Shown here one piece after another: positions 20,368-61,833 of a stretch of DNA of 64,000 nucleotides. The DNA is from Scenedesmus sp. PABB004. Taxonomy: Eukaryota. The DNA lies in the NCBI GenBank assembly GCA_014905635.1, contig JABVCE010000015.1:372001-436000 (forward strand), read 5' to 3'. Numbering within the stretch: the stretch's first letter is position 1; the number at the start of each line of letters is the position of its first letter. A program made the position numbers and the translations under genes. The notes under the pieces were generated by a model, which saw only the letters and a program-made list of their open reading frames with translations, was not told the origin of the DNA and did not search any database.

Positions 20368-21779
20368 ATGCCGCGCTGCACAGCCCCAGCCTCCCCGCGC
20401 TGGTCGGCCCGGCGCCAGGCGGCGGCGCCCCGGCAGCGGCGCGGCGCGGCGGCGGGCGGCGCCGGCACGCCGCGCCGCGCGGCGGGCGGCGCCGCCGCCG
20501 GCTCGACCGCTGGCGGCGACCGGCCGCCGACCTTCCTCATCACCGGCTCGACCGACGGCATCGGCCTGCACACGGCCTGCAAGCTCGCCGCGAGCGGCGC
20601 GACCGTGCTGCTCCACGGGCGCAGCGCGGAGCGCGTGGACCGCGCGGTCGAGCGCGTGCGGCGCGCCGCCGGCGGCGGCGCGGCCGGCGCAGGCGCCGTG
20701 CGGGGCTACGTGGCGGACCTGTCGAGCCTGGGCGCCGTGCGGCAGCTCGCCGCCGACGTGGCACGCGACCACGACGCACTGCACGCGCTGGCGCTCAACG
20801 CGGGCGTGTATGAGCCGCAGCGCCGGTGCGTGTGCGCGCGTGTTGTTTAGGTTAAAACCCTGTTGCTCGGTGTGTGCGGGCGCGCGCGCGCGCAGAGCCG
20901 GCCAGCCGCCGCCGCGCCCGCGGCGCGCGCGCCAACGTCGCCGCCGCCGCCGCCGCGCGCCCGCAGCGTCTCGCAGGACGGCTACGAGCTCACGTGGGCT
21001 GTCAACGTGCTCGCGCCCTTCCTGCTCGCGTCGCTGCTCTGGCGCCGCGTGACGGTGCCGCGCCGGCGCGGCGCTGCGCGCGGGGCGCGCCGCGCGTGCG
21101 GCGGGCGCGCGCGCCGCCGCGCGGGGCGTGCCGCGCGCTCACCGCGCCCCGCCCCGCTCCCGCGCCCCCAGGGGCGCATCGTCACGACGGCGTCCATCTC
21201 GGCCGCCAGCAGCCTGGACCTGGGCAACCTGCAGCAGGAGCGCGGCTACAGGTGGGGGGGGGGGGGGCAGCTGGGCGCCCGGCGGCGGCGGCGGTGGCTG
21301 CGCGAGCCGGGCTGCAACGCGCCGCCACCGGCGCCTCTGCCGGCAGCGCGCACGGCGCCTACTCGGCCTCGAAGCTCTGCAACATCATCTTTGCCCGGCG
21401 CCTCGCGGCGCTGCTCTGCGACGCGGGGCGCGCCGCGACGTCCAACGCGCTCGACCCGGGCACGGTCAACACCAAGATGCTGCTCGCCGGCTGGGGGCGC
21501 ATCGGTGCGCGCGCACGCGCCGCCCGCGGGCCGCGGGGCCGCCGCCGCGTGCCCGGCCGCCCGCCAACACGGCCGCGCCCGGCGCCGCGCGGCAGGCATT
21601 GAGGTGGGGCAGGCGGACCACACGCACGCGCTGCTCACCGACCCGAGCCTCGCCGCGACGAGCGGCGCCTACTTTGTGGGCGGGCGGCGCGCCAGCCCCC
21701 GCGCGCCGCCGAGGACGAGGCGCTGGCCGACGAGCTCTGGCAGCTCTGGGGGCGGCAGACGGGCGGCGCGTTCAGCTGA
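20368..21779 (+). CDS. Short-chain dehydrogenase/reductase (retinol-dehydrogenase-like), multi-exon, apparent 1-nt frameshift near 21696-21700
   Basis: Cofactor motif ITGSTDGIG, ADLSSL, NAG, DGYELTWAVN, catalytic YSASK and DPGTVNTKML. The typical C-terminal helix AEDEALADELWQLW lies one frame off. Confidence 0.92.
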
Positions 21780-21967
21780 GTGACGGCGGCGTCGCAAGCG
21801 GCGGCGCGGCCCGTCGTGTCGGCAGTAGCGCGGTGCAGCTGCCAGCGCTGCCGCGCGCCAGACGCGCCACGCGGCCGCCGCAGTCGCCGACGCTCCAGCT
21901 GCCGCGCGCCGCGCCGCGCCGCCCGCGTCCGTTCCCGCTGCGACTCCGAGGTCTGGCAAAGCTACAG

Positions 21968-23773
21968 ATGCTGCGGCCGGGGCGAGGCGCGGGCACGCAG
22001 CTGCGGGCGGCGGGCCCGCCGCCGTCCGCTGCCCTCTCGCCGCGGCAGCGCCGGCTCGCTGCTGCCAAGAAGCGGTGCGGCGACGCCTTCCCCGGGGCTT
22101 AGCCGTGACCGTAACGAGCTCGCGCGGGCGCGCCCGGGCTCACCGCCGCACCTCCGCTGCCCGCAGGTCGAGCGAACGGCGGCAGCAGGCGACGCCGGTA
22201 GCGCCTGCCCAGCAGCAGCAGCAGCAGCAGCAGAAGCAGCAGCAGCAGCACCTGCTGCAGCAGCAGCAGCAGCCGCCGTCGCCGCCGGCCGTGCCGCGTG
22301 GCCTCGCCGACCTGCCCGCGCTGCTGGCGCAGCCGCCGCGGCAGCAGGACGACGCGGCGCGCGCGCTGAATGGGCTGCCCCCGGAGCAGCTAGTCGCCGT
22401 GGCCCAGGCCTGGGCGGGCGCGGCGCGGCGGTCCGCACCGAGCGAGCTCGCCGCCGCCGAGCGCCTGCTGGACGGCCTGGCGGCCGCGGCGCTCGCGCAG
22501 CAGCGCGGCGGCGCGCTGGCGCGGCAGCAGCTCGCAGATGCCGCGTGGGCGCTCGCACACTGGGACGCGCTGCACTGGCGCCGAGAGCTCGACGCCGAGG
22601 GCTGGCGGCCGCCGCCGGACGACGAGCGGCCGCCGCCGGACGACGACGACGAGCGCGTCGGCGCGCCGCAGCGGGACGCGCTGCCGTGGGCGCGGCCGCT
22701 TCGGTGGTCGGGGCCGCTGCAGGCCTCGCTGGCCGTGCCCTTCCTGGTGCTGCCAAACCTGCTGCCGGGGCTGCGCCTGCGTGACTTCCTGCAAGAGGTG
22801 GCGCTGCGGCGGGACACCATCCAGCTCAGCGACTCCAACGGGGTGCGGGAGGTGCCTGAGTCGCGGCTCACGGGCTGGCAGTCCGACCTCGGCGTCACTT
22901 TCGAGTACAGCGGTGCGTGGGGACGACGGCAGGCCGGCGAGCGCAGGCGCTGCGAGCGCGCCGCCGCGCGTGGCCGTCCGGCGTGTGGCCGCCGAGCGGC
23001 GCCGGCCCGCCGGTGCGCGCGCGCAGGCAAGGCGATGGCGCCACGCAGCGCCGCCGGCGGGCGCCTGACGCCGCGCGTCGCGCGGGTGCGGCGGCGCGCC
23101 GCGCCGCGCCGCCCGCCGCGCCGCCCCGCGGCGCCGGCGCGCGTGAGCGCGTGCGTGGCCTGCGACGCGCGCGCCGTCCGCCGCCGCGCCGCAGGTGCGA
23201 GACGCGCTGGCTGCGGCGTGCGGCCCCGCGTTTGAATTTGACAGCGTGCTCGTGAACTATTACGAAAGTGAGTGACGCGGGCGGCAGCTGCAGCCGGCGG
23301 CGCGCGCACGCGCCGCCGCCGCCTCCCATGGGCTCCCATGGCTGGCCATCCAGCTGACTGGCGTGCGGCCCGCCCCGCGCGCAGATGGCAAGTGCGGGAT
23401 GCGGTTCCACGCCGACCCGCTCGGCGAGGGCACCTGGGCGCCAGCGACTGCGGTCGTGAGCGTCGGCGCGGCGCGCGGCTTCGTGTTTCGCCGCGCGGAC
23501 GACCACGCCGCGCGCTGGGCCTACCGCGTCGCGAGCGGGGACGCGGTGCTCATGTTTGGCCGCTGCCAGGAGGAGCTGCAGCACGCCGTCATTGTGGAGC
23601 GCTCCGCACAAGATGCGGGGCCGCGCCTGAGCCTCGTGTACAAGAAGCGCCTGCTCCGGGACGACGGAGCCTGGGCGGCCCCGCCTCGAGCGTGTGGGGC
23701 GGCTGGCGCAGGCAGTAGCGGGGCCGTCCCGGGACCGCGCGGCGCTGGCGCCGCAGCGTGCTGCGATCTGTAA
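21968..23773 (+). CDS. AlkB-family 2OG-Fe(II) dioxygenase, multi-exon
   Basis: Spliced motifs ESRLTGWQ, FEYSG, FDSVLVNYY, GMRFHAD (HxD), LQHAV (distal His) and PRLSLVYK (2OG-binding Arg). The N-terminus is Arg/Ala-rich and targeting-like, followed by poly-Q. Confidence 0.88.
23769..23773 (+). terminator. TGTAA polyadenylation signal (second copy at 25179-25183)
   Basis: TGTAA is the canonical chlorophyte poly(A) signal. Here it coincides with the AlkB stop codon; the second copy lies ~50 nt after the precursor-1 stop. Confidence 0.65.
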
Positions 23774-24069
23774 CACGTCTGACCGCGCGACAAGGGCCGG
23801 GCAGGCCAGCAGCGGCGGCAGGTCAGCAGCGCCGGCAGGGCGGCGGCTGCGCACGCGGCCAGGCCAGCGCTGGCGCGCGCGCGTTGCGAGCTGCCGCGCC
23901 GGCCCTGGCGCTCGCTCGCGCGTTGGGCCGCTCGCTCTGGCATCCTCTGCTTGTCGCCTCACTCTTGGGCGCGCTGTTGGCTGCTCTGGGCAGCTGCCTG
24001 CGCCCGGCGCCGCGCAGTACGTGACGGTGCCGCCGCCCCGCGCAAGGCCGCCCACGCGCCCCGCGAGCC

Positions 24070-24075
24070 TATAAA
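24070..24075 (+). promoter_or_regulatory. TATA box of precursor gene 1
   Basis: TATAAA in GC-rich DNA ~300 nt upstream of ATG 24373. A probable 5'-UTR intron follows (GTGAG at 24186 to CCAG at 24328). Confidence 0.7.
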
Positions 24076-24372
24076 CGCCACGCAAGCCTCCATCTGGCAC
24101 TTTGAGAACACCCTCGTGCATCGAGCCGCAGCCCATCGCCAGCAGTCCACTTCTCCCGCCCGCGCACTCCGCCAACTGCTGCGAGGTGAGCTCGCGCGCC
24201 ACCGCTAGCGACCGAGTTTGAGCCCTCAAGTCACGCGCACATCTCAAGAAGCGCGCGCGCGAGCTGGGGGGCCGTGCGGGTGAGCTCACGTCCGGTGCCG
24301 CCACCGCTGCGCCGCGCGCCGCCGCCAGGCCTCCTAGCGTCGCCGAGCCTCAAGCGAGGCCGCACGCTCAAG

Positions 24373-25128
24373 ATGAGGCTCCTCCACGCCTCCGCCGCGG
24401 CGCTGCTGGTGCTCATGTGGGCTGGCAGCACGCTGGTCACTGCCGCGCGCGCACAGGACGGCGGGGTCGAGGCCGCCGAGGCGGGCGGCATCTGGGACAA
24501 CGGCGACTCCGCGCCCAGCCACATGGCGCAGATTGAGAGCGGCGGCTGGCGCAACGACCGCTGGGGCGCCCGGCGGCGCATGCTGGGTGCGGCGGCGGTA
24601 GTCGCCCACCGGGGCTGGCAGCCTGGCCGCCGCGGCCAAGCAAGCGGGGCTAGCCCGCGGGCCGCCGCCCACACGCTGCGCGTGCCACCGGCGCCCGCCG
24701 CCGCAGGCGCCGCGCGCCACGGCGGCAACGGCGGCCGCAGCAGCTGGCGCGGCTCCTCCGGGGCTGGCCGCAGCTGGCAGGGCGGCGGCGGCGGCCGCAT
24801 CTGGCAGTTCAACCGCAGGATGCTGGGTGCGCCCGCGCGCCCGCGTGCCCTCGCTCGCTGCCGCGCCGCCGCGGCCGTGCCCCGAGCCCCGACGACCGCA
24901 CTCAACTCAACGGCCGCCGCCGCCCGCCCGCCCGCCCACCTGCCCGCCCGTCCAGGCGCCGACGCCACGCAGGCGGCGCAGGGCGCCGCGGCGGCCGACG
25001 GTGCCGCCTACACGCGCGGCGGTTGGCGGTCCAGCTTCGGTGGCGAGTATGGCAGCTGGCGCAGCGCCGCGTCCGCCGCCAGCGGCGGCCCCGCCTCGAG
25101 CGTGTGGGGCGGCTGGCGCAGGCAGTAG
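24373..25128 (+). CDS. Secreted Trp/Gly-rich multi-peptide precursor 1 (exons 24373-24586, 24707-24826, 24956-25128)
   Basis: Signal peptide MRLLHASAAALLVLMWAGSTLVTAARA. Modules ...GGWRNDRWGARRRML|G, ...SWQGGGGGRIWQFNRRML|G and ...GGWRSSFGGEYGSWRS...SSVWGGWRRQ*. GT-AG phase-1 introns fall directly after each RRML. Confidence 0.8.
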   Translation: MRLLHASAAALLVLMWAGSTLVTAARAQDGGVEAAEAGGIWDNGDSAPSHMAQIESGGWRNDRWGARRRMLGAAAVVAHRGWQPGRRGQASGASPRAAAHTLRVPPAPAAAGAARHGGNGGRSSWRGSSGAGRSWQGGGGGRIWQFNRRMLGAPARPRALARCRAAAAVPRAPTTALNSTAAAARPPAHLPARPGADATQAAQGAAAADGAAYTRGGWRSSFGGEYGSWRSAASAASGGPASSVWGGWRRQ

Positions 25129-25818
25129 CGGGGCCGTCCCGGGACCGCGCGGCGCTGGCGCCGCAGCGTGCTGCGATCTGTAACACGTCTGACCGCGCGA
25201 CAAGGGCCGGGCAGGCCAGCAGCGGCGGCAGGTCAGCAGCGCCGGCAGGGCGGCGGCTGCGCACGCGGCCAGGCCAGCGCTGGCGCGCGCGCGTTGCGAG
25301 CTGCCGCGCCGGCCCTGGCGCGCTCGCTCGCGCGTTGGGCCGCTCGCTCTGGCATCCTCTGCTTGTCGACTCACTCTTGGGCGCGCTGCTGGGCTGCTCT
25401 GGGCAGCTGCGCGCCGCGCAGTACGTGACGGTGCCGCCGCCCCGCGCCAGGGCCGCCCACGCGCCCCGCGAGCCTATAAACGCCACGCAAGCCTCCATCT
25501 GGCACTTTGAGAACACCCTCGTGCATCGAGCCGCAGCCCATCGCCAGCAGTCCACTTCTCCCGCCCGCGCACTCCGCCAACTGCTGCGAGGTGAGCTCGC
25601 GCGCCACCGCTAGCGACCGAGTTTGAGCCCTCAAGTCACGCGCACATCTCAAGAAGCGCGCGCGCGAGCTGGGGGGCCGTGCGGGTGAGCTCACGTCCGG
25701 TGCCGCCACCGCTGCGCCGCGCGCCGCCGCCAGGCCTCCTAGCGTCGCCGAGCCTCAAGCGAGGCCGCACGCTCAAGATGAGGCTCCTCCACGCCTCCGC
25801 CGCGGCGCTGCTGGTGCT
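25084..25818. repeat. Direct repeat copy B (~735 bp)
   Basis: Matches 23674-24413 from GGCGGCCCCGCCTCGAG through ...CTGCTGGTGCT. Confidence 0.97.
25475..25480 (+). promoter_or_regulatory. TATA box of precursor gene 2
   Basis: Duplicate of the 24070 TATAAA, ~300 nt upstream of ATG 25778. Confidence 0.7.
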
Positions 25819-26471
25819 TGCGGCGGCGCACAGCGCGCTGGCCTCCAAGTTGAATTACGGCCCCGGCAGCTACATGTGGGAGGGCGGCGGCGGCGGGCGC
25901 CTGTGGCAGGGCGGCGCGAGCGCGCCGTCGTGGGGCGCCATCGACGACTCGCGGTTCGACAACATGATGGGCCGCCGCCTGCTTGGTGCGGCGCGGCGGG
26001 CGCGCGCGCGCGCGCCCGCCGCGCGCGCTGCGGCGCGCCTCGTGACCTGGCAGCGCGCGGCCCGCCCGCCCGCCTTGCCGCGCAGGCGCGCAGGCCGCGC
26101 GGCAGTGGGGCTGGGGCGACAGCAACGACCGCATGTGGCAGCGCTCGGCCGACTTCAACGACCGCATGTGGCAGCATGGCGGCGGGTCAGGCCGCATCTG
26201 GCAGGGCCGCCGCCTCGCGGGCGTCACGGGTGCGACACGGCGCGGCGCTCTGCAGAGCCGGCGGCGGCGCACCCGCTGCCGGGCTGACCGCTGCCGCCGC
26301 CTTCCGACGCCGCCGCCACCGCCGCCGACACCCGCAGGCGCCGCGTCGGCCTCGGGCGGGGCCTACGGCCCGGCTGGCTGGACCAGCGGCATCGACGCGC
26401 GCGGCCCGACCTCGGCTCAGTTCAGCCGCAGCGGCATCGCCACGCGCAGCTGGCAGTGGACCAAGCTGTGA
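25778..26471 (+). CDS. Secreted Trp/Gly-rich multi-peptide precursor 2 (exons 25778-25985, 26086-26229, 26338-26471)
   Basis: Signal peptide MRLLHASAAALLVLAAAHSALA. Modules SKLNYGPGSYMWEGGGGGRLWQ...DNMMGRRLL|G, AQAARQWGWGDSNDRMWQRSADFNDRMWQHGGGSGRIWQGRRLAGVT|G and AASASGGAYGPAGWTS...RSWQWTKL*. Splicing at the GT-AG sites restores the frame. Confidence 0.82.
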
Positions 26472-26966
26472 GCAGGCGCTGGCGCTGGCCTGCGCAGGCG
26501 CGGCCGCACGATGCGCTGCGCCACGACGGTGCTGACCGCTGGCGGGCGCGCTGGCGGGCGGTGGCGGTGTGGCGTGCGGTTCCAGGGGGCCCTGCACGGG
26601 CATGAGCTGTGCGGTCATAAGTACTCGAGGGCGGCCGCCTCGGGCGCCCAACGCCGTGCCAAATCCGCCATGCAGTTTGTGTGCACACACACCACCACGT
26701 GGGGTTGCTGGGGGGCCGGCGAGCGTCAGGGGTCGCTGCGATAGCCCCTGAAATAGGGAAGCACTTGCCATGAAGTGGAGCACGTGCCATGAACAGTGCG
26801 CGGCCAGTGCCCCCACCAAACTGTTCCTGTCTGAAGGCGCATAAACAAACAACGTGTGAGAATTACTCCGGCCAACCATGATGCGCGCCCACAGCCAGCA
26901 GCAGGGAGGAGCGGAGACCAAGTCGTGCGCGGCCCTGGGCGCTGCGCCCGGCGGCCGGTCAGCTGC

Positions 26967-55291: not shown

Positions 55292-58200
55292 ATGGAGGAG
55301 GCGGAGTGCGTGCGCCTGCTGCACGCCCGCGGCGAGCCGTTCGCGAGGTGCGGCGCAGCAGCAGCAGCCGCCCGCGTGCCGCCGCCGCCGCCGGGCGCTG
55401 CGGTCGCCGGCGTGCGGCCTCTCACGTACCGACCGGCACCCCTCAGGCGCCTGGCGGCAGCCCGGGGGCTGGCGGCGCGCCTGCTGGACGGCAGCGGCGG
55501 CGCGGCCGCCGCTGCTGCCGGCGCCGCTGCCCCGTTGCCGGTGCGCTGCCACTATGCACACACCGTGATGGAGTGGGCCCAGGGCGTGCTGATGAAGCAC
55601 CAGCCGGGCGGCGGCGGCCCTGCGAGCGGTGCGGCAGCGGCGGCGGCGGCGCCCGCGGCGGCGCCGCGCGCCCGGGCCGCAGCGGCTCACGCCGCCGCCG
55701 CCTCGCACGCGCGCGCACGCAGGCGGCCCCTCAGTGGAGGAGCTGTGTGATGTCTGGGCGCTGCTGGCGGCGCTGTTGGGCCGCGGCGGGCGGCTGCTGC
55801 AGGGCTGCGCGGCCGCCGCAGGCCTGTGCGGCGCGGCGGCCGCCGCCGCGGCGGCCGAGTGGGGCGGCGACAGCGACGGCGCGGTCGCGGCCTCCCTGCT
55901 GGCCGTGCTCGCAGCGCTGGCCGGTGACGACGACGGCGACGGCAGCGACGGCGGCGACGGCGGCAGCAGCTGCCCCGCGAGCGTGCGCGCCAGCTTCCGT
56001 CCGAGCCTGGAGCAGGCCGCGGCGCTGGTGCAGGCCTGCCTCGGCCGCCTGGCGCAGCGACAGGCGGCGCCGGAGGGCGGCGACGAGCAGCCGTCTTCTG
56101 CGTGCACCTGGGCGGAGCTCGCGGCGCTGGCGATGGCCTGGTTTGGCCGCGGCGCCGCGCAGCACACCAACCCCAAGAAGGTGCGGGCGTGGCGCCGCCC
56201 GCGGCGCCCGCGGCGCCCGCGGCCCCGCGCGCCCGCTGCCGGGGCCAACGCATGCGGCGCCGCACGGCGATGTGGTGCAGGTGTACGGTGTGGTCCTCGG
56301 GCCGCTGCTGGAGCCGCTGCTAGCGGCCGCGCACCCGGCCGCTGCGGCCGCGGAGCGCGGCGCCGAGGGCGTGGCGGCGGCCGCGGCGCGGTGGCTGCTC
56401 GCGCGCGCGCTGTTTGGCCAGCAGCACCTCGGCGGGCTCTGCAGCGTGCTGGCCGGCGCCGCGGCGCTGCACCTGGACAGCGTGGCGGCTGCAGGGACGG
56501 CCGCGGCCAGCGGCGACGCCGCAGCGGCGGCCGGCGGCGACGCCGCAGCGGCAGGCCCGCCACCTGAGGTGGAGCGGTGCGCGCCGCCGGCGCTGGTGCG
56601 GCGCGTGGCCGCGCTGCAGGGCCCCGCCGCGCAGGCGCTGCTGGCGCGCAGCTACCAGGGCCAGCTGCTGACCCGGCTGCAGCAGCTGGTGGCCGCGGCG
56701 CTCGCGGGCCAGGCCGGCGCCGCTGCTGCGGTCGCGGCGGCGCCAAGCGAGGGCGGGCGCAAGCGCAAGCAGCGAAGGGAGGCAGAGCCACGCGCGGGGC
56801 TGCCGGGCACGCCCGGCACCGGCGCCGTGCTGGCCGCGCTGCCGGGCCTGCTGCGGGAGTTCTCAGCCGCCCTGCGGGTGTACCGCAGAGCCCTGGAGGA
56901 GGGTGAGCCAGCGGCGAGCGCCGGCCGCGCCGTGCGCCGTGCCCTGCTCCAGCGCGCGGCGCTGCTGCCACTCACGCCCCCGCCCCGCGCGCGCCCGCGA
57001 CGCAGACGTGGCGGCGTCGCTCGCGGCCGCGGGCCAGACCGGCCGCAGGGACGCGGCGCCGGCGCAGCACGGCGCGGGCGAGGAGCAGCTCGCGGGCGAC
57101 ACGGCGGCAGCGGCGCCGTCGGTCGCGGCGGTGCGCGCAGCGGACACCAACCTGGCGGTGTGCCTCCTGGCGATGCTGCTGCCGCACCTGGGCGGCGACG
57201 GTGCGCGCGAGGGGGCTGTCCCGGCGCCCAAGAAGCGAAAGCAGCAGGCGCAGAAGCTCCACCAGCCGGGGGGAGCCGGCGGCGCCGCGCTGCCTCTTGT
57301 CGGCGCCGAGGCGGGCGCCTGGGGCCGAGGTGCGTCTGCCGCGGCGGAGCTGCTCCATGGCATCACGGCGGCCGGAGCCTACCGGCCCACGCAGGACGCC
57401 GGCGGGCGCGTGAGGTCGCTGCTGCAGCTGGCGGCCGACCTGCTGCTGTCGCACAGCCGCGGCGGCGGCGACGCGCCGCCGGAGCAGCCCCGGCAGGGCG
57501 CTGGCGGGGCGGGCGACGCGCGTGCTGCAGCCGTGCTGGCCGCCGCGCTGATGGATGTGGAGTATAGGTGCGGCTCGCCGGCTCTGCTACTGGCAGCAGG
57601 GCTGAGGCGCTGCGCCCTGGGCCCCCGCGCGCCGGCCCCGCACAGCGCGCGCGCGGCCGCCGCCGCAGGGTGCTCGTGCCGCGGCTGCCTGAGCTGTTTG
57701 GCCTCGCGTGGGCGGCCGCGGCGGGCGGCGGCGGCGGCCTGGCTGCGGCCGCCGGCTTCTTCGAGCACCTCGCGCAGGCGCACGCGGAGCTGCGGCGGTT
57801 CGATGTGCTGCTGAGGAGCCTCTATGCCACTCTCCCGCGCCTGCTGCGGCAGCGCAGCGGCGGCGACCCGGCCGCGGCGGCGGCGGGCGAGGTGCTCGCG
57901 TCCGCGCGCTTCGTGGGCGCGGTGCGGCGCGCCGTGGCGGACGCGCCGTCAGGTGCGTGAGCGCGCTGCGCCGCGGCATGCGGTCGCCGCACTGCCCTTG
58001 CCCCCCCCCCCCCCCAGCCGCGAGGCGCGACTGTGCTGTCGTGAGGGGCGACCGCCGCCGCGCCGCGCCGCAGGCCAAGCCGTGGCGCTGGTGCAGTGCG
58101 TGGGTGCGTGCCTGCAGGGGCTGCTCGCGCAGGCCCCGCAGCAGCGCGGCGGGCCAGGCGCCGCTGCGGCGGACCTGGTGCTGCTGCGGGCGGCCGACCC

Positions 58201-61200
58201 GCTCGCCGCCACGCTGGATGCGCTTCCAGTTGAGCTCGCCACCGCGGCAGGCGCGGCCTCGGCGGCGGCGAAGCTGCTCGCGGACGGCGACGCCTGGCGG
58301 CCGCTGGCGGCGGCCGCGTGCGGCGACGCCGCGGCGGCGGCCGCGGCGCTCGCGCCCGGCGCGGCGGGCGCGACCGGCGCGGCGTTGCGGTGCTACCAGT
58401 CGCTGCTGCGCCTGCACGCGCGCTGCGCGGCGCTCAACCCAGAGGTGGCGCCGCTGCCTGGGCAGGGCATCAACCCGACCATCATCGATCAGCCGCCCGC
58501 TGGCGGCTGCGACGCAGGGCAGCCGCCGGGGGGCGGCTACTTTGCGGCGCTGCCGGGCGGCGGCGCGCGCGCGCGCCGTGCGGCGGCCTGGCGCAGCTCG
58601 CGGCGGCGGCGGCCGCGCCCGGTGGCGGCGCGGGCGACAGCGACGCCGCCGCGCCGCCGGCCGCGCGCCTCGTCGCGCGGCGCCTGGGGCAGCTGGCGGC
58701 GGGCTGCATCCTGCAGCGCCTGCAGGTGCTGCAGGAGCGGCTGGCGCGCGTCGAGTGCTGGTGCCCCGCCGGCATGAGCCTGACCGCTGCGCGCAAGGCG
58801 CTGCGGCGGGGCGCGGCAGCGGGCGGCCCGCCTGCGGCCGCGCCGGCAAGCTCCGGCGAGCCCGCCGGCGACAACACAGAGGGCGGCGGCGGCGACGGCG
58901 GCGGCAGCAGCAGCGGCAGCGGTGGCGGCGGCAGCAGCGGCAGCGGCAGTGACAGCGGCAGCGGCAGCGGCAGCGGCAGCGGCAGCGGCAGCGGCAGTGA
59001 CGGCGAGGATGACAACAGGGGCGCCCCAGCCGACACAGAGCAGGAGGACGGCCGGCGCCGCCGCGAGCAGCAGGAGCGGCACCTCCCCGTGCTGCACGCG
59101 GCGTGGCTGGCAGAGGGGCGCCAGCTGGCCGCGGCGCTGCTGCGCCTGCTCGAGGCCGCGCGAGGACTGGCGCCGGATGAGGAGGCCTGGCTTGCAGAGG
59201 TTTACGGCTGCACGGCGGCCGTCTGGGCGCGCTTTGCCGCGCCCGCCGAGCTGTCCAGCTTCCTTGGCGTGGCCGTTGCGGCGGCAGCGGCGGGGCCGCA
59301 GCAGGCGGCCCCGCTCGTGCCGGCGGCGCGCCAGCTGCTGGGCGTGCAGAGCGGTGCCGCGCCCGACAGCACGGCGCCCGCCTGGCTGAGCCTGCCCGGC
59401 GCGCAGGCGTGCCTGGTGCAGGCGGTCGCCGGCCGCATGGCTGGCGTGCTGCAGCCGCAGCTGGCGGACCCGGGCAGCCAGCGAGTGCACAAGAAGCGTC
59501 GCAGCGCGGCCGGCGCAGGCGCGGCAGCAGGCGGCGGCGCTGCTGCTGGCGGCGTGGCGGTGCTGCTGCGGGCGTTTGCAGACACGCTCGGCGGCGAGGC
59601 GGGCGACAGCACTCCGGCGGCGGCCACCCTGGCCGCGGGCCTGCTGCAGGGCCACCTGCAGCCGCTGGCCAAGGCGGGCGGCGCCGGCGCCGGCGGCGTG
59701 GCGGCTGCGGCGGCTGGCGAGGCGCAGCTGCTGTCGTTGCTGCTGCTGCTGTGCCAGCTGCCGCTGTTTGCACTGGACCAGCAGCACGGCTGCTGCCTCG
59801 CGCTGCTGGCACTGGCGGCGGCGGCGGCGGTGCTGCACGTGCTGCCTGCCGGCACGCCTGGCCACGCGCGGTGCTGCCTGGCGTTGGCGCTGCGGCTGCT
59901 GGCGCAGCTGGATGCCTTGGGCTGCGGCGTCGCGGCGGTCGCGAGCGCGGGCCCACGCTGGCACGGCGCCGTGGTGCGAGTGCTGGAGCTCGCCGGCGAA
60001 GCTGCGGCGGCAGAGTCGGGGCAGCCCGAGCACGAAGCGTCCCGGGCGCGGCTGGCGGGGCCAGCACTGGTGCAGCTGCTCGCGGCGCAGCTGCGCGCCG
60101 CGCGGTCGGCTGAGCTGCTTGTACGGGTGGGCGACGCGGCGGCGGCGCAGCAGCCGCTGCGTACGCTGCAGCTGGCGGCGGCACTGACGGCTGCCACAGA
60201 CGCCGGCAGCATCACCTGGGACGGTGACGCGCCCAGCGCCGCAGCCACGGAGCGCCTGCAGGCAGCGGCGCTGCAGCAGGCGCTGCAGCTGCTGCCCGCG
60301 CTGCGCGGCGACGATGGCAGCGGCGCAGCGCTGGCGCCAGGCGAGGCGGTCGCGGCGGCCGCGCTCAGCCGGGCGCTGGCCCGCGCCGAGCCCCTGCTGC
60401 AGCGGCTGGCGGCGGCGGGGCAGCTGGCGCAGCGCGCCGCCTCCGCGGCGGGCGCCGCGCTGCGCCTGACGGGCCTGCCGGAGCAGCAGCTCGCGCTGCT
60501 GGCGCTGGTCAACGCCGCGCACGTCGCCCTAGCGAGCGCGCCCGGGGGGTCCGCGGACGGCGGGCCCGCCGACGGCGACGCCTTTGAGGGCGTGCTGCGC
60601 CGCAGCCTGCGCCTGCTGCAGGAGCTGCAGCCTGCCAGCCCCTGGCCGCTGCTGCCGCCGGCGTACCTGGAGCTGAGCGACCTGGAGGCCGTGGCGGATG
60701 TGGGGCGGGGCCTGGCCGCCGAGCTGGCCGGCGCTCAGGGGCAGGCTGCCCCTGAGCCCGCGGAGGGGCAGCCCGGCGAGGAGCAGCCCGTGCTCGCCTC
60801 GGCGGTGCTGCTCGGCTTGCGCGGCGCGGTGGCGGCCGCGCCGCGGCAGCGCCAGCTGCAGGTCCACCACCTGCTCTGCGACGACGGCGCCGGCGGCGGC
60901 GGCCTGCTGCACCTCTGCGGCGCCGCGGCCGCGCCGGGGGCGGCCGCGGCGCTGCTGGCGCAGCTGCAGCTCCTCCTTGTCGTGCTCGAGATCACGGCGG
61001 GGCCCAAGCGCCTCAAGCTGCTGGCCGCCCACGCGCCGACCTACGTGGCGGCCCTGCTGGCCGTCCTGGCGCAGGTGGCGGCCGCGGAGCCGCCGGAGAC
61101 GGCCGCGGACGAGCAGCTGGCGCTCGCGAGCTGGAGCCTGCGCTGCCTGGAGTCGATGTTTGGCCGCCAGGCGACCTTTGACCTTCCCCCCGCGTCCACT

Positions 61201-61833
61201 GCCGCCGCGCTGCAGGCGGCGGCCGGCGTCGCGCGGGCGCTGCGGCGCGCGCGCGTCGCGGGCGACGCGTGCGCCGCGGCGTACTGTTCCGCGTGCGGGC
61301 TGCTGGTCTCGATGGCGCGCCACCGCGGCGGCCAGCTCGGCCGGCTCATGCCTCACGTGCTCGCGGCGGTGCACGAGCTGCTGCTCGCGCTCGTCGCGCT
61401 CGACTGCCGCGCCCGCGCGCTCTCGGGCGCCGCGGGGCGGCGTGGCGCCGCGCGGCTGCTGCGCTGCGCGGGGCAGCTGGGCCGCGTGTACGAGGCGCTC
61501 GCGGAGCAGGGCGCCTCGCTGGGGCGCTACTGCCACCACGCGGTCACAGACTATGTCGTCCACGTCGCCGCGGCGCCGCCCGCGAGGAGCCTCGAGGCCC
61601 ACGGCAGCGACGCCGGCGGCGGCGGTGACGCCGGCGCGGACGGCGTGAGCGCCGAGGTCGGCTCCGCGCTGCGCGGCGGCGCGTGCGTGCTGATGGGCGT
61701 GCTGGGCCCGGCCGAGGTGCAGGGCGCGCACGTGCTGCTCGGCCAGGGCCCGCTCGGCGGCGCGCGGCGCGGCGCGCTGGCGGCGCTGCGCAAGGAGTTT
61801 GAGTCCCGCTTCAAGCACGGCGGCAAGGTGTGA
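55292..61833 (+). CDS. URB2: Nucleolar pre-ribosomal protein Urb2/Npa2-like, multi-exon, apparent frameshift ~58563-58576
   Basis: Very long helical protein ending RCAGQLGRVYE...RYCHHAVTDYV...SALRGG..LM...LAALRKEFESRFKHGGKV*, matching the Urb2 C-terminal domain (terminal GKV). Basic NLS-like patches RKRK and PKKRK. Confidence 0.8.

Follow-up and report, generated by a model that had tools for sequence, protein, structure and literature searches.

Can a genome in which long open frames run in every direction conceal small genes for secreted peptides? The question is raised by two tandem genes, here denoted g1 and g2, in a 64,000-nucleotide stretch of DNA from Scenedesmus sp. PABB004 (GenBank assembly GCA_014905635.1, contig JABVCE010000015.1, positions 372,001 to 436,000 of the forward strand), hereafter called the window; all coordinates refer to its first nucleotide. 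A sequence-only reading of the window had described g1 and g2 as prohormone-like precursors, each consisting of a signal peptide and three Trp-rich modules. Here, we examine the structure, the coding evidence and the relationships of the two genes, and weigh what their products might be. The reading that we prefer, namely, that g1 and g2 encode pre-pro-proteins cut at RR(M/L)(L/A) module ends into Trp-rich peptides, appears credible from the sequence, if somewhat short of probable.

Two paralogous genes at 80% G+C

The window is about 80% G+C throughout and contains 203 stop-to-stop open reading frames (ORFs) of at least 200 amino acids (aa), which are spread over all six frames, so that an open frame is no evidence for a gene here. 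In character, the DNA looks eukaryotic and green-algal, with short introns bounded by G/GTGCG and CAG (the slash marks the exon border), TATA boxes and TGTAA motifs. g1 (24373-25128, 168 aa) and g2 (25778-26471, 161 aa) are paralogous three-exon genes on the plus strand, and four independent lines of evidence support their reading frame and exon borders. The exons show a pronounced codon periodicity, with A/T counts at codon positions 1/2/3 of 53/49/9 in g1 and 58/56/8 in g2 and a G+C fraction at third positions (GC3) of 0.93-0.975 per exon, whereas the introns lack periodicity (8/8/4, 6/8/6, 4/2/4 and 4/8/7) and are higher in G+C (0.82-0.90). The two proteins are colinear over their full length, with 41% identity and a score of 76 bits; exon 2 of g2 lies in another frame, and the paralogy with g1 is regained only after removal of a 100-nucleotide (nt) intron, the intron translations themselves being unlike any module (z at most 1.0 in a shuffle comparison). 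The composition of both proteins is distinctive: Trp accounts for 11 of 168 residues in g1 and 11 of 161 in g2, against 1.4% in the six-frame background, Pro for only 2 and 4 residues, against 10.7%, and Cys is absent from both, against 3.3%. Finally, P0005, a public protein model that spans the locus, has exactly these four introns.

The introns, of 120 and 129 nt in g1 and 100 and 108 nt in g2, are all in phase 1, with G/GTGCG donors and CAG/GCGC acceptors, and are of the same class as six introns (92-141 nt) mapped in two neighbouring enzyme genes. Three of the four (120, 129 and 108 nt) are multiples of three and stop-free in frame, just as the sequence-only reading had stated. That reading's proposal of two small tandem three-exon genes is borne out by the periodicity, the composition, the colinear paralogy and the introns of P0005, and, judged by these sequence features, g1 and g2 are very probably real genes.

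Modules and their Arg-Arg ends

Each mature protein comprises three modules of 39-56 aa, one per exon, as defined by an alignment of all six modules (A3, also used below as a search profile), and the spliced models confirm the borders of the one-module-per-exon arrangement with phase-1 introns that had been claimed. When compared with composition-preserving shuffles, the first and second modules are significantly alike, both within and between the genes: z is 3.2 for the two first modules, 4.8 for the two second modules, 5.2 for module 2 of g1 against module 1 of g2, and 4.7 for modules 1 and 2 of g2, the score of each of these four pairs being reached by 0 to 3 of 500 shuffles. The third modules are weakly similar to each other (z 1.8) and to modules 1 or 2 (z at most 2.1). 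Thus, the earlier notion of three like modules per gene stands for modules 1 and 2 and fails for the third. A poly-Gly stretch, whose coding repeat (GGC)n can lengthen independently, accounts for part of the likeness between modules 1 and 2. The motifs GG(G/S)GR(I/L)WQ and NDR(M)W, previously said to be shared among the modules, are indeed found in three and two of the six, respectively, and nowhere else in the window. Outside the Arg-Arg motif, the modules are only 26-56% alike.

All four inner module ends carry this motif, as had been noticed: RRML in both cases in g1, and RRLL and RRLA in g2, 1 to 5 residues before a Gly codon that is split by the phase-1 intron and followed by Ala. The observed count of RR[ML][LA] was reached by 1 of 20000 composition-preserving shuffles for each gene. 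Moreover, all six Arg-Arg pairs of the mature proteins (4/4 in g1 and 2/2 in g2) are found at most 8 residues from a module end, at the four inner ends and at the g1 C-terminus, a closeness matched in 9 of 20000 shuffles for g1 and 527 of 20000 for g2. Constraint from the splice site can account for one to three bases at the end of an exon, not for a 12-base motif.

The assignment of RRxL-type sites to site-1 protease (S1P) likewise agrees with the literature: Arabidopsis SBT6.1/S1P is reported to prefer R-(R/K)-X-L or R-(R/K)-L-X (PMC7162652), and all four inner sites fit this pattern. S1P-like (SKI-1/S1P) subtilases are reported throughout Archaeplastida (PMC6713707). At two of the four inner sites, both in g2, the Arg pair is preceded by Gly (MMGRR and WQGRR); Gly-Arg-Arg sites of cleavage and amidation are reported from mass spectrometry in Chlamydomonas (PMC9351486).

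Predicted signal peptides and protein character

Both proteins start with Met-Arg followed by an uncharged hydrophobic stretch, with an 11-residue Kyte-Doolittle mean of 2.13 in g1 and 2.33 in g2; Arg2 is the sole charge before residue 26 in g1 and residue 24 in g2. The predicted cleavage sites, between ARA and Q in g1 and between ALA and S in g2, obey the -3/-1 rule. The two signal peptides diverge after residue 14, and the hydrophobic core and the small-x-small site are kept in both. Hence the signal peptides that the earlier reading had proposed for both genes are upheld by a rule-based call (hydropathy, charge and the -3/-1 rule), and, given that the proteins contain no second hydrophobic segment, their products are likely to be secreted. 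Neither protein has an N-x-S/T sequon.

Gly makes up 34 of 168 residues in g1 and 28 of 161 in g2, and over much of either protein a Trp is met every ~8-11 residues, as part of short G-x-x-R-x-W-Q-type units (~10 aa). The mature proteins are probably disordered. AlphaFold2 modelling of the module alignment yielded two low-confidence helices at a mean predicted confidence (pLDDT) of 63.7; in a single-sequence model of P0005, residues 711-1013 have a pLDDT of 24-42 and are coil except for the signal-peptide helix, which is no proof of disorder because the known enzyme domains of this protein were also poorly modelled. The C-terminal Thr-Lys-Leu of g2 (26466-26471) loosely resembles a peroxisomal targeting signal of the PTS1 type, a likeness that is presumably irrelevant behind a signal peptide.

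A duplicated promoter tract and probable separate transcription units

Each gene is preceded by a copy of a 744-bp tract (Table 1). The two copies are 97.8% identical over 744 alignment columns and have sharp borders; they differ by 3 substitutions and 4 indels, all located in columns 235-376, upstream of the TATA box. Copy A starts at the 3' end of an upstream 2-oxoglutarate (2OG) oxygenase-like gene and, after the portion that resembles the g1 3' end, continues through intergenic DNA, a TATA box and a 5' untranslated region (5'UTR) with a putative intron into the first 14 codons. Because the tract copies are ~98% identical whereas the gene bodies are 41% identical at the protein level, the tract seems to have been copied, or spread by gene conversion, only recently, as a cassette that includes the promoter, the 5'UTR and the beginning of the signal peptide; an assembly artefact is another possible source of the repeat. 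With near-identical promoters, g1 and g2 should be co-regulated.

Three TATAAA boxes are present in the window, against 0.07 expected, and two of these precede g1 and g2, although they count as one independent event because both are within the duplicated tract. No ATG intervenes between the TATA box and the start codon, which has an A at position -3. TGTAA, the usual chlorophyte polyadenylation signal, occurs seven times in the window, a number reached by 3 of 100 shuffles, against 3.15 expected.

The public model P0005 (1013 aa; source name 'RDH14', from a Scenedesmus strain) spans 20368-26471 on the plus strand and joins four neighbouring genes, for a dehydrogenase, an oxygenase, g1 and g2. 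It leaves exon 3 of g1 at 25103 to join g2 and so lacks the C-terminus of g1 and the signal peptide of g2. The two introns that accomplish the fusion measure 635 and 730 nt (92-141 nt in the 10 other introns mapped), have GTGGGG donors, and contain a TATAAA box, an in-frame stop codon and TGTAA. We therefore read the four-gene fusion, from these features of the sequence, as an annotation artefact: with the tract present before each gene and the fusing introns outsized and loaded with TATA box, stop and TGTAA, g1 and g2 would be separate transcription units. The source genome is reported to comprise 39.8 Mb at 78.5% GC, with only 7,092 gene models (PMC12571836), which we take to be compatible with fusion of models on a wide scale. 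The locus is a clear case, independent of the function of g1 and g2, of public models fusing four genes in an extremely GC-rich genome, and fusions of this kind keep small secreted proteins out of sight of protein databases and homology searches.

Relatives in databases and metagenomes

The 'family' posited by the sequence-only reading does not extend beyond g1 and g2 in the protein, metagenome, ESM Atlas or Protein Data Bank (PDB) searches that we performed. Pfam, at E values up to 0.01, assigns no family to either protein, the one sub-threshold chance match being to GrlR (17.4 bits against a cut-off of 26.8). Three queries were run against a set of 5.8 billion clusters, each with a filter of 8000 candidates: unspliced g1 found no relative at near lengths among the word-filtered candidates, profile A3 at longer lengths retrieved P0005 alone from its word-filtered candidates, and residues 735-1013 of P0005 found none at shorter lengths at E up to 0.1. 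Against 1.84 billion representatives, profile A3 yielded no true relative and also missed P0005 itself, so that this negative is weak; two matches at E up to 0.001, P0003 and P0004, were rejected as unrelated tandem-repeat proteins with weak matches summed over repeats. Among metagenome contigs, two scans gave 587 and 592 pattern matches, none of which was confirmed by tblastn; ESM Atlas returned no usable match, and profile A3 had 0 matches among PDB sequences at E up to 1. Collectively, these homology negatives are weak because the queries are short and of low complexity, the filter passed 8000 candidates, and the representative library missed P0005. For now, g1 and g2 would be best described as a lineage-restricted orphan pair, a 'family' of two genes in one genome.

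Two further candidates within the window, a putative third member of the family at ~27220 on the minus strand and the Trp-rich region at 56-61 kb, are off-frame products, with no similarity to g1 or g2 by tblastn or motif scan. The latter region, at about 56200-60700 on the plus strand, is the most Trp-rich six-frame stretch of the window (frame 2, up to 14 Trp per 160 aa) and is read out of frame from a long ORF rich in Leu and Ala (58234-61833, 1199 aa), an example of how CTGGCG-rich coding DNA yields spurious Trp-rich frames in this genome.

A search of sequencing runs for the locus listed two DNA runs (X1 and X2) of one freshwater-metagenome study, with 0.07 and 0.05 of the sampled words, and no RNA run; 14 and 20 records of these runs were aligned to the locus at 80% likeness. 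One metagenome contig aligns over 457 nt with 25376-25835 (14 other letters and 23 gap letters) and another over 228 nt with 25444-25671 (10 other letters); additional pieces fall on 23601-23750, 23883-24068 and 26598-26700, with matches about 95-97% alike. The promoter, the 5'UTR and the first 58 coding bases are covered at about 96-97%. The coding bodies are represented only by 35-40-nt pieces with 5-7 mismatches, which we take as noise. Given contigs that are ~95-97% alike, a close relative of the source organism exists in a freshwater habitat. One of the contigs carries the 9-nt insertion that separates tract copy A from copy B.

In the titles and the opening parts of the abstracts covered by our literature search, there is no description of green-algal secreted Trp-rich or Gly-rich proteins of this sort, and the main text of a wall-proteomics paper (PMC11839794) contains neither RDH14 nor 'retinol dehydrogenase' nor 'tryptophan'.

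Likeness to characterized precursors and peptides

g1 and g2 appear to belong to none of the families with which we compared them, which offer only the nearest functional analogues. RALF23 and the pro-regions of pectin methylesterases (PMEs) are among the plant propeptides processed by S1P. Another S1P/SBT6.1 propeptide, CLEL6/GLV1, with sites RRLR and RRAL, has the same succession of a signal peptide and R-(R/K)-X-L or R-(R/K)-L-X sites as g1 and g2, where such sites occupy four of four inner ends (PMC7162652). In the plant precursors, however, the sites are part of a variable pro-region that precedes a single mature peptide, whereas those of g1 and g2 lie between repeated modules, and Pfam, at E up to 0.01, indicates no homology to RALF, CLEL/GLV or the PME pro-region.

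The published criteria for neuropeptide-like precursors include a signal sequence, several paired-basic sites, the lack of a known domain and repeated similar peptides (PMC6313938). Both g1 and g2 have the signal sequence, the several paired-basic sites and no domain recognised by Pfam; repeated peptides are apparent in modules 1 and 2 (four pairs, z 3.2-5.2) and not in the third modules (z at most 2.1), and the amidation signal G(K/R)(K/R) of the same source is present at two of the four inner sites, in g2 only. Closer to Scenedesmus, Chlamydomonas proGATI is likewise a chlorophycean secreted precursor with paired-basic sites, and the Gly-Arg-Arg of g2 is of the kind that is reported to be cut by subtilisin-like proteases and amidated by PAM there (PMC9351486). 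Unlike proGATI, which is described as large, with three folded domains, Pro-rich linkers, Cys and glycans (PMC9351486), g1 and g2 are small, Cys-free, Pro-poor and built of repeats. Nor do the two proteins resemble the chlorophycean hydroxyproline-rich wall glycoproteins and pherophorins, given that they contain only 2 and 4 Pro residues and no (Ser-Pro)n repeat. The GW/WG 'Argonaute-hook' proteins are cytosolic or nuclear, disordered and rich in GW/WG pairs; some such pairs occur in g1 and g2, yet the signal-peptide-like N-terminus argues for a secretory route.

Among antimicrobial peptides, shepherins I and II derive from one precursor. The shepherins (GGH repeats) and armadillidin (six repeats of GGGF(H/N)(R/S)) are linear, Cys-free and unstructured and combine Gly runs with aromatic and basic residues (PMC5031766), as do the GGGGGR(I/L)WQ and GRSWQ units here. 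These peptides differ from g1 and g2 in Gly content (47-68% against 17-20%, so that g1 and g2 fall outside this very Gly-rich type) and in the aromatic residue (Phe or His against Trp; PMC5031766), and the charge of g1 and g2 is mixed. Trp and Arg dominate in g1 and g2 as they do in the Trp/Arg-rich antimicrobial peptides indolicidin, tritrpticin and lactoferricin. The strings RSWQW and RQWGW of g1 and g2 recall the lactoferricin core. Peptides of this class are 11-25 aa long and strongly cationic, whereas the modules of g1 and g2 are 39-56 aa long, diluted with Gly, Ser and Ala, and only partly cationic.

A candidate precursor and its alternatives

We propose the following scenario for g1 and g2. 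Each gene would encode a pre-pro-protein of ~165 aa, in which a cleavable signal peptide precedes three modules (~40-55 aa each), every one of them encoded by a phase-1 exon of its own. After the precursor has entered the secretory pathway, a subtilisin-like convertase, either of the S1P type (cutting after RRxL) or of the kexin or prohormone convertase (PC) type (cutting after RR), would act on the Arg-Arg-(Met/Leu)-(Leu/Ala) motif with which every inner module closes, so that three Trp-rich, mostly cationic linear peptides would be freed per gene. At the Gly-Arg-Arg sites of g2, a PC-type cut followed by trimming could yield amidated peptides ending in MM-amide and IWQ-amide. The peptides might be membrane-active or antimicrobial, or might serve in signalling. 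Transcription, secretion, cleavage and peptide function are all inferred here from the sequence; we hold cleavage to be plausible because the dibasic-plus-hydrophobic motif persists at all inner module ends whereas the remaining sequence drifts and because the two proteins have the signal sequence, the paired-basic sites and the lack of a known domain that are among the precursor criteria.

Several observations weigh against cleavage into peptides. At 40-55 aa, the modules are longer than one expects of the linear signalling peptides known from algae or plants, and their net charges range from about -2 to +7 by manual count, only module 2 of g1 being a typical cationic peptide. Strict Gly-Arg-Arg is found at neither inner site of g1 (WGARRR and FNRR), compared with both in g2. 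The 303 residues of g1 and g2 contain the loose S1P motif 4 times and the 710 residues of the adjacent dehydrogenase and oxygenase parts contain it 3 times, an enrichment of only ~3-fold, and 331 Chlamydomonas proteins are reported to have G(K/R)(K/R) sites (PMC6313938); thus, basic-pair motifs come cheaply in Arg-rich algal proteomes. Furthermore, the four Arg-Arg sites are not independent, as they descend from module duplications, and the protein, metagenome and structure-sequence searches, weak as these negatives are, revealed no homologue outside the locus.

The proteins might instead remain whole, as secreted disordered matrix proteins of the 'sticker-spacer' kind, in which Trp and Arg would be the stickers and Gly, Ser and Ala the spacers, acting in the wall, in mucilage or in cell-cell adhesion through cation-pi interactions and carbohydrate stacking, with RR(M/L)L a mere part of the repeat. 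Such a role, conceivable although on the doubtful side, would suit the regular spacing of Trp (~8-11 residues over much of both proteins), the high content of Gly, Ser and Ala, the lack of Cys and of a hydrophobic core, and the fast divergence of the paralogues with Trp and Arg positions staying in place; the loose RRxL-type motif, moreover, is not rare in this proteome. However, the Met/Leu-Leu pair after Arg-Arg, which a plain sticker-spacer repeat does not need, is kept only at module ends, the Pro/Hyp-rich repeats typical of chlorophycean wall glycoproteins (here 2 and 4 Pro) and N-glycosylation sequons are missing, and ~140 mature residues are few for a matrix protein. That the ORFs are non-functional, being young, decaying or untranslated, their motifs arising as a side effect of (GGC)n and GC-rich repeats, is a view encouraged by the ORFs of at least 200 aa in all six frames, the Trp-rich off-frames elsewhere in the window, for example at 56-61 kb, and the failure of our searches to find a homologue. 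We nevertheless consider it improbable, given the strong three-base periodicity confined to the proposed exons, an amino-acid composition far from the six-frame background, the protein-level paralogy with conserved intron positions and phases, and the functional look of both signal peptides even after their divergence.

More unlikely still is a single long gene, as in the public model P0005, encoding a 1013-aa protein with a dehydrogenase, a 2OG-Fe(II) oxygenase and six Trp-rich modules, the 'signal peptides' being intronic or internal. It is contradicted by the length, the donors and the contents of the fusing introns, by the retention of the promoter, 5'UTR, ATG and signal-peptide tract before both genes, and by the low number of gene models for this genome, which we read as widespread fusion (PMC12571836). 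A cluster resembling those for ribosomally synthesized and post-translationally modified peptides (RiPPs), with the dehydrogenase and oxygenase as tailoring enzymes, was rejected as far-fetched, given that the oxygenase is AlkB-like (PF13532) and lacks a signal peptide and that adjacency is weak evidence in a eukaryote.

If the precursors envisaged in our preferred reading are made and cut, they would represent a compact multi-peptide system in a non-model green alga, in which each peptide has an exon of its own, the phase-1 introns are symmetric and both genes share a promoter cassette. This would extend convertase peptide processing, so far shown in Chlamydomonas, to Scenedesmaceae and provide defined candidate peptides for synthesis and testing. 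A bolder extension, which we regard as rather unlikely, is that g1 and g2 are the first members of an undescribed class of chlorophyte multi-peptide precursors that arose via exon duplication, in which each exon would correspond to a Trp-rich peptide released by a convertase at RR(M/L)(L/A), with amidation in g2, for extracellular signalling (e.g., in colony formation or mating) or membrane-active defence.

Other features of the locus

Table 1. Coordinates of the exons, promoter elements and duplicated tract at the g1-g2 locus (window positions)
Feature	Position	Strand	Description
g1 exon 1	24373..24586	+	Predicted signal peptide (~residues 1-28) and module 1; ends with RRML and the first base of the split Gly codon
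g1 exon 2	24707..24826	+	Module 2, GGGGGRIWQ core; ends with RRML and the first base of the split Gly codon
g1 exon 3	24956..25128	+	Module 3; ends with WGGWRRQ, then TAG stop
g2 exon 1	25778..25985	+	Predicted signal peptide (~residues 1-22) and module 1, GGGGGRLWQ core; ends with MMGRRLL and the first base of the split Gly codon
g2 exon 2	26086..26229	+	Module 2, two NDRMWQ and GGGSGRIWQ; ends with GRRLAGVT and the first base of the split Gly codon
g2 exon 3	26338..26471	+	Module 3; ends with RSWQWTKL, then TGA stop
Tract copy A	23674..24416	+	Opens with a duplicate of the 3' part of g1 (45 final coding nt plus 3'UTR); extends into g1 as far as codon 14
Tract copy B	25084..25822	+	g1 end, 3'UTR, intergenic DNA, g2 promoter and 5'UTR, first 14 codons of g2
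g1 TATAAA box	24070..24075	+	298 nt upstream of the ATG
g2 TATAAA box	25475..25480	+	Inside tract copy B
g1 putative 5'UTR intron	24186..24328	+	GTGAGC...CCGCCAG; acceptor at 24328 also used by the public model
g2 putative 5'UTR intron	25591..25733	+	Identical to its g1 counterpart
TGTAA after g1	25179..25183	+	51 nt past the g1 stop

The enzyme portions of P0005 comprise a short-chain dehydrogenase domain (PF00106, residues 56-254) and a 2OG-Fe(II) oxygenase domain of the AlkB-like type (PF13532, residues 504-675, 56.7 bits). The oxygenase gene (21968-23773, plus strand) has a long N-terminal extension in which (CAG)n, at about 22200-22275, encodes a run of Gln, and at its other end tract copy A lends it an out-of-frame C-terminal tail and a TAA stop located inside TGTAA (23769-23773). 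In the dehydrogenase gene, a run of ~13 G (21254-21266) lies at the predicted donor of an intron, the preceding exon ending at 21251.

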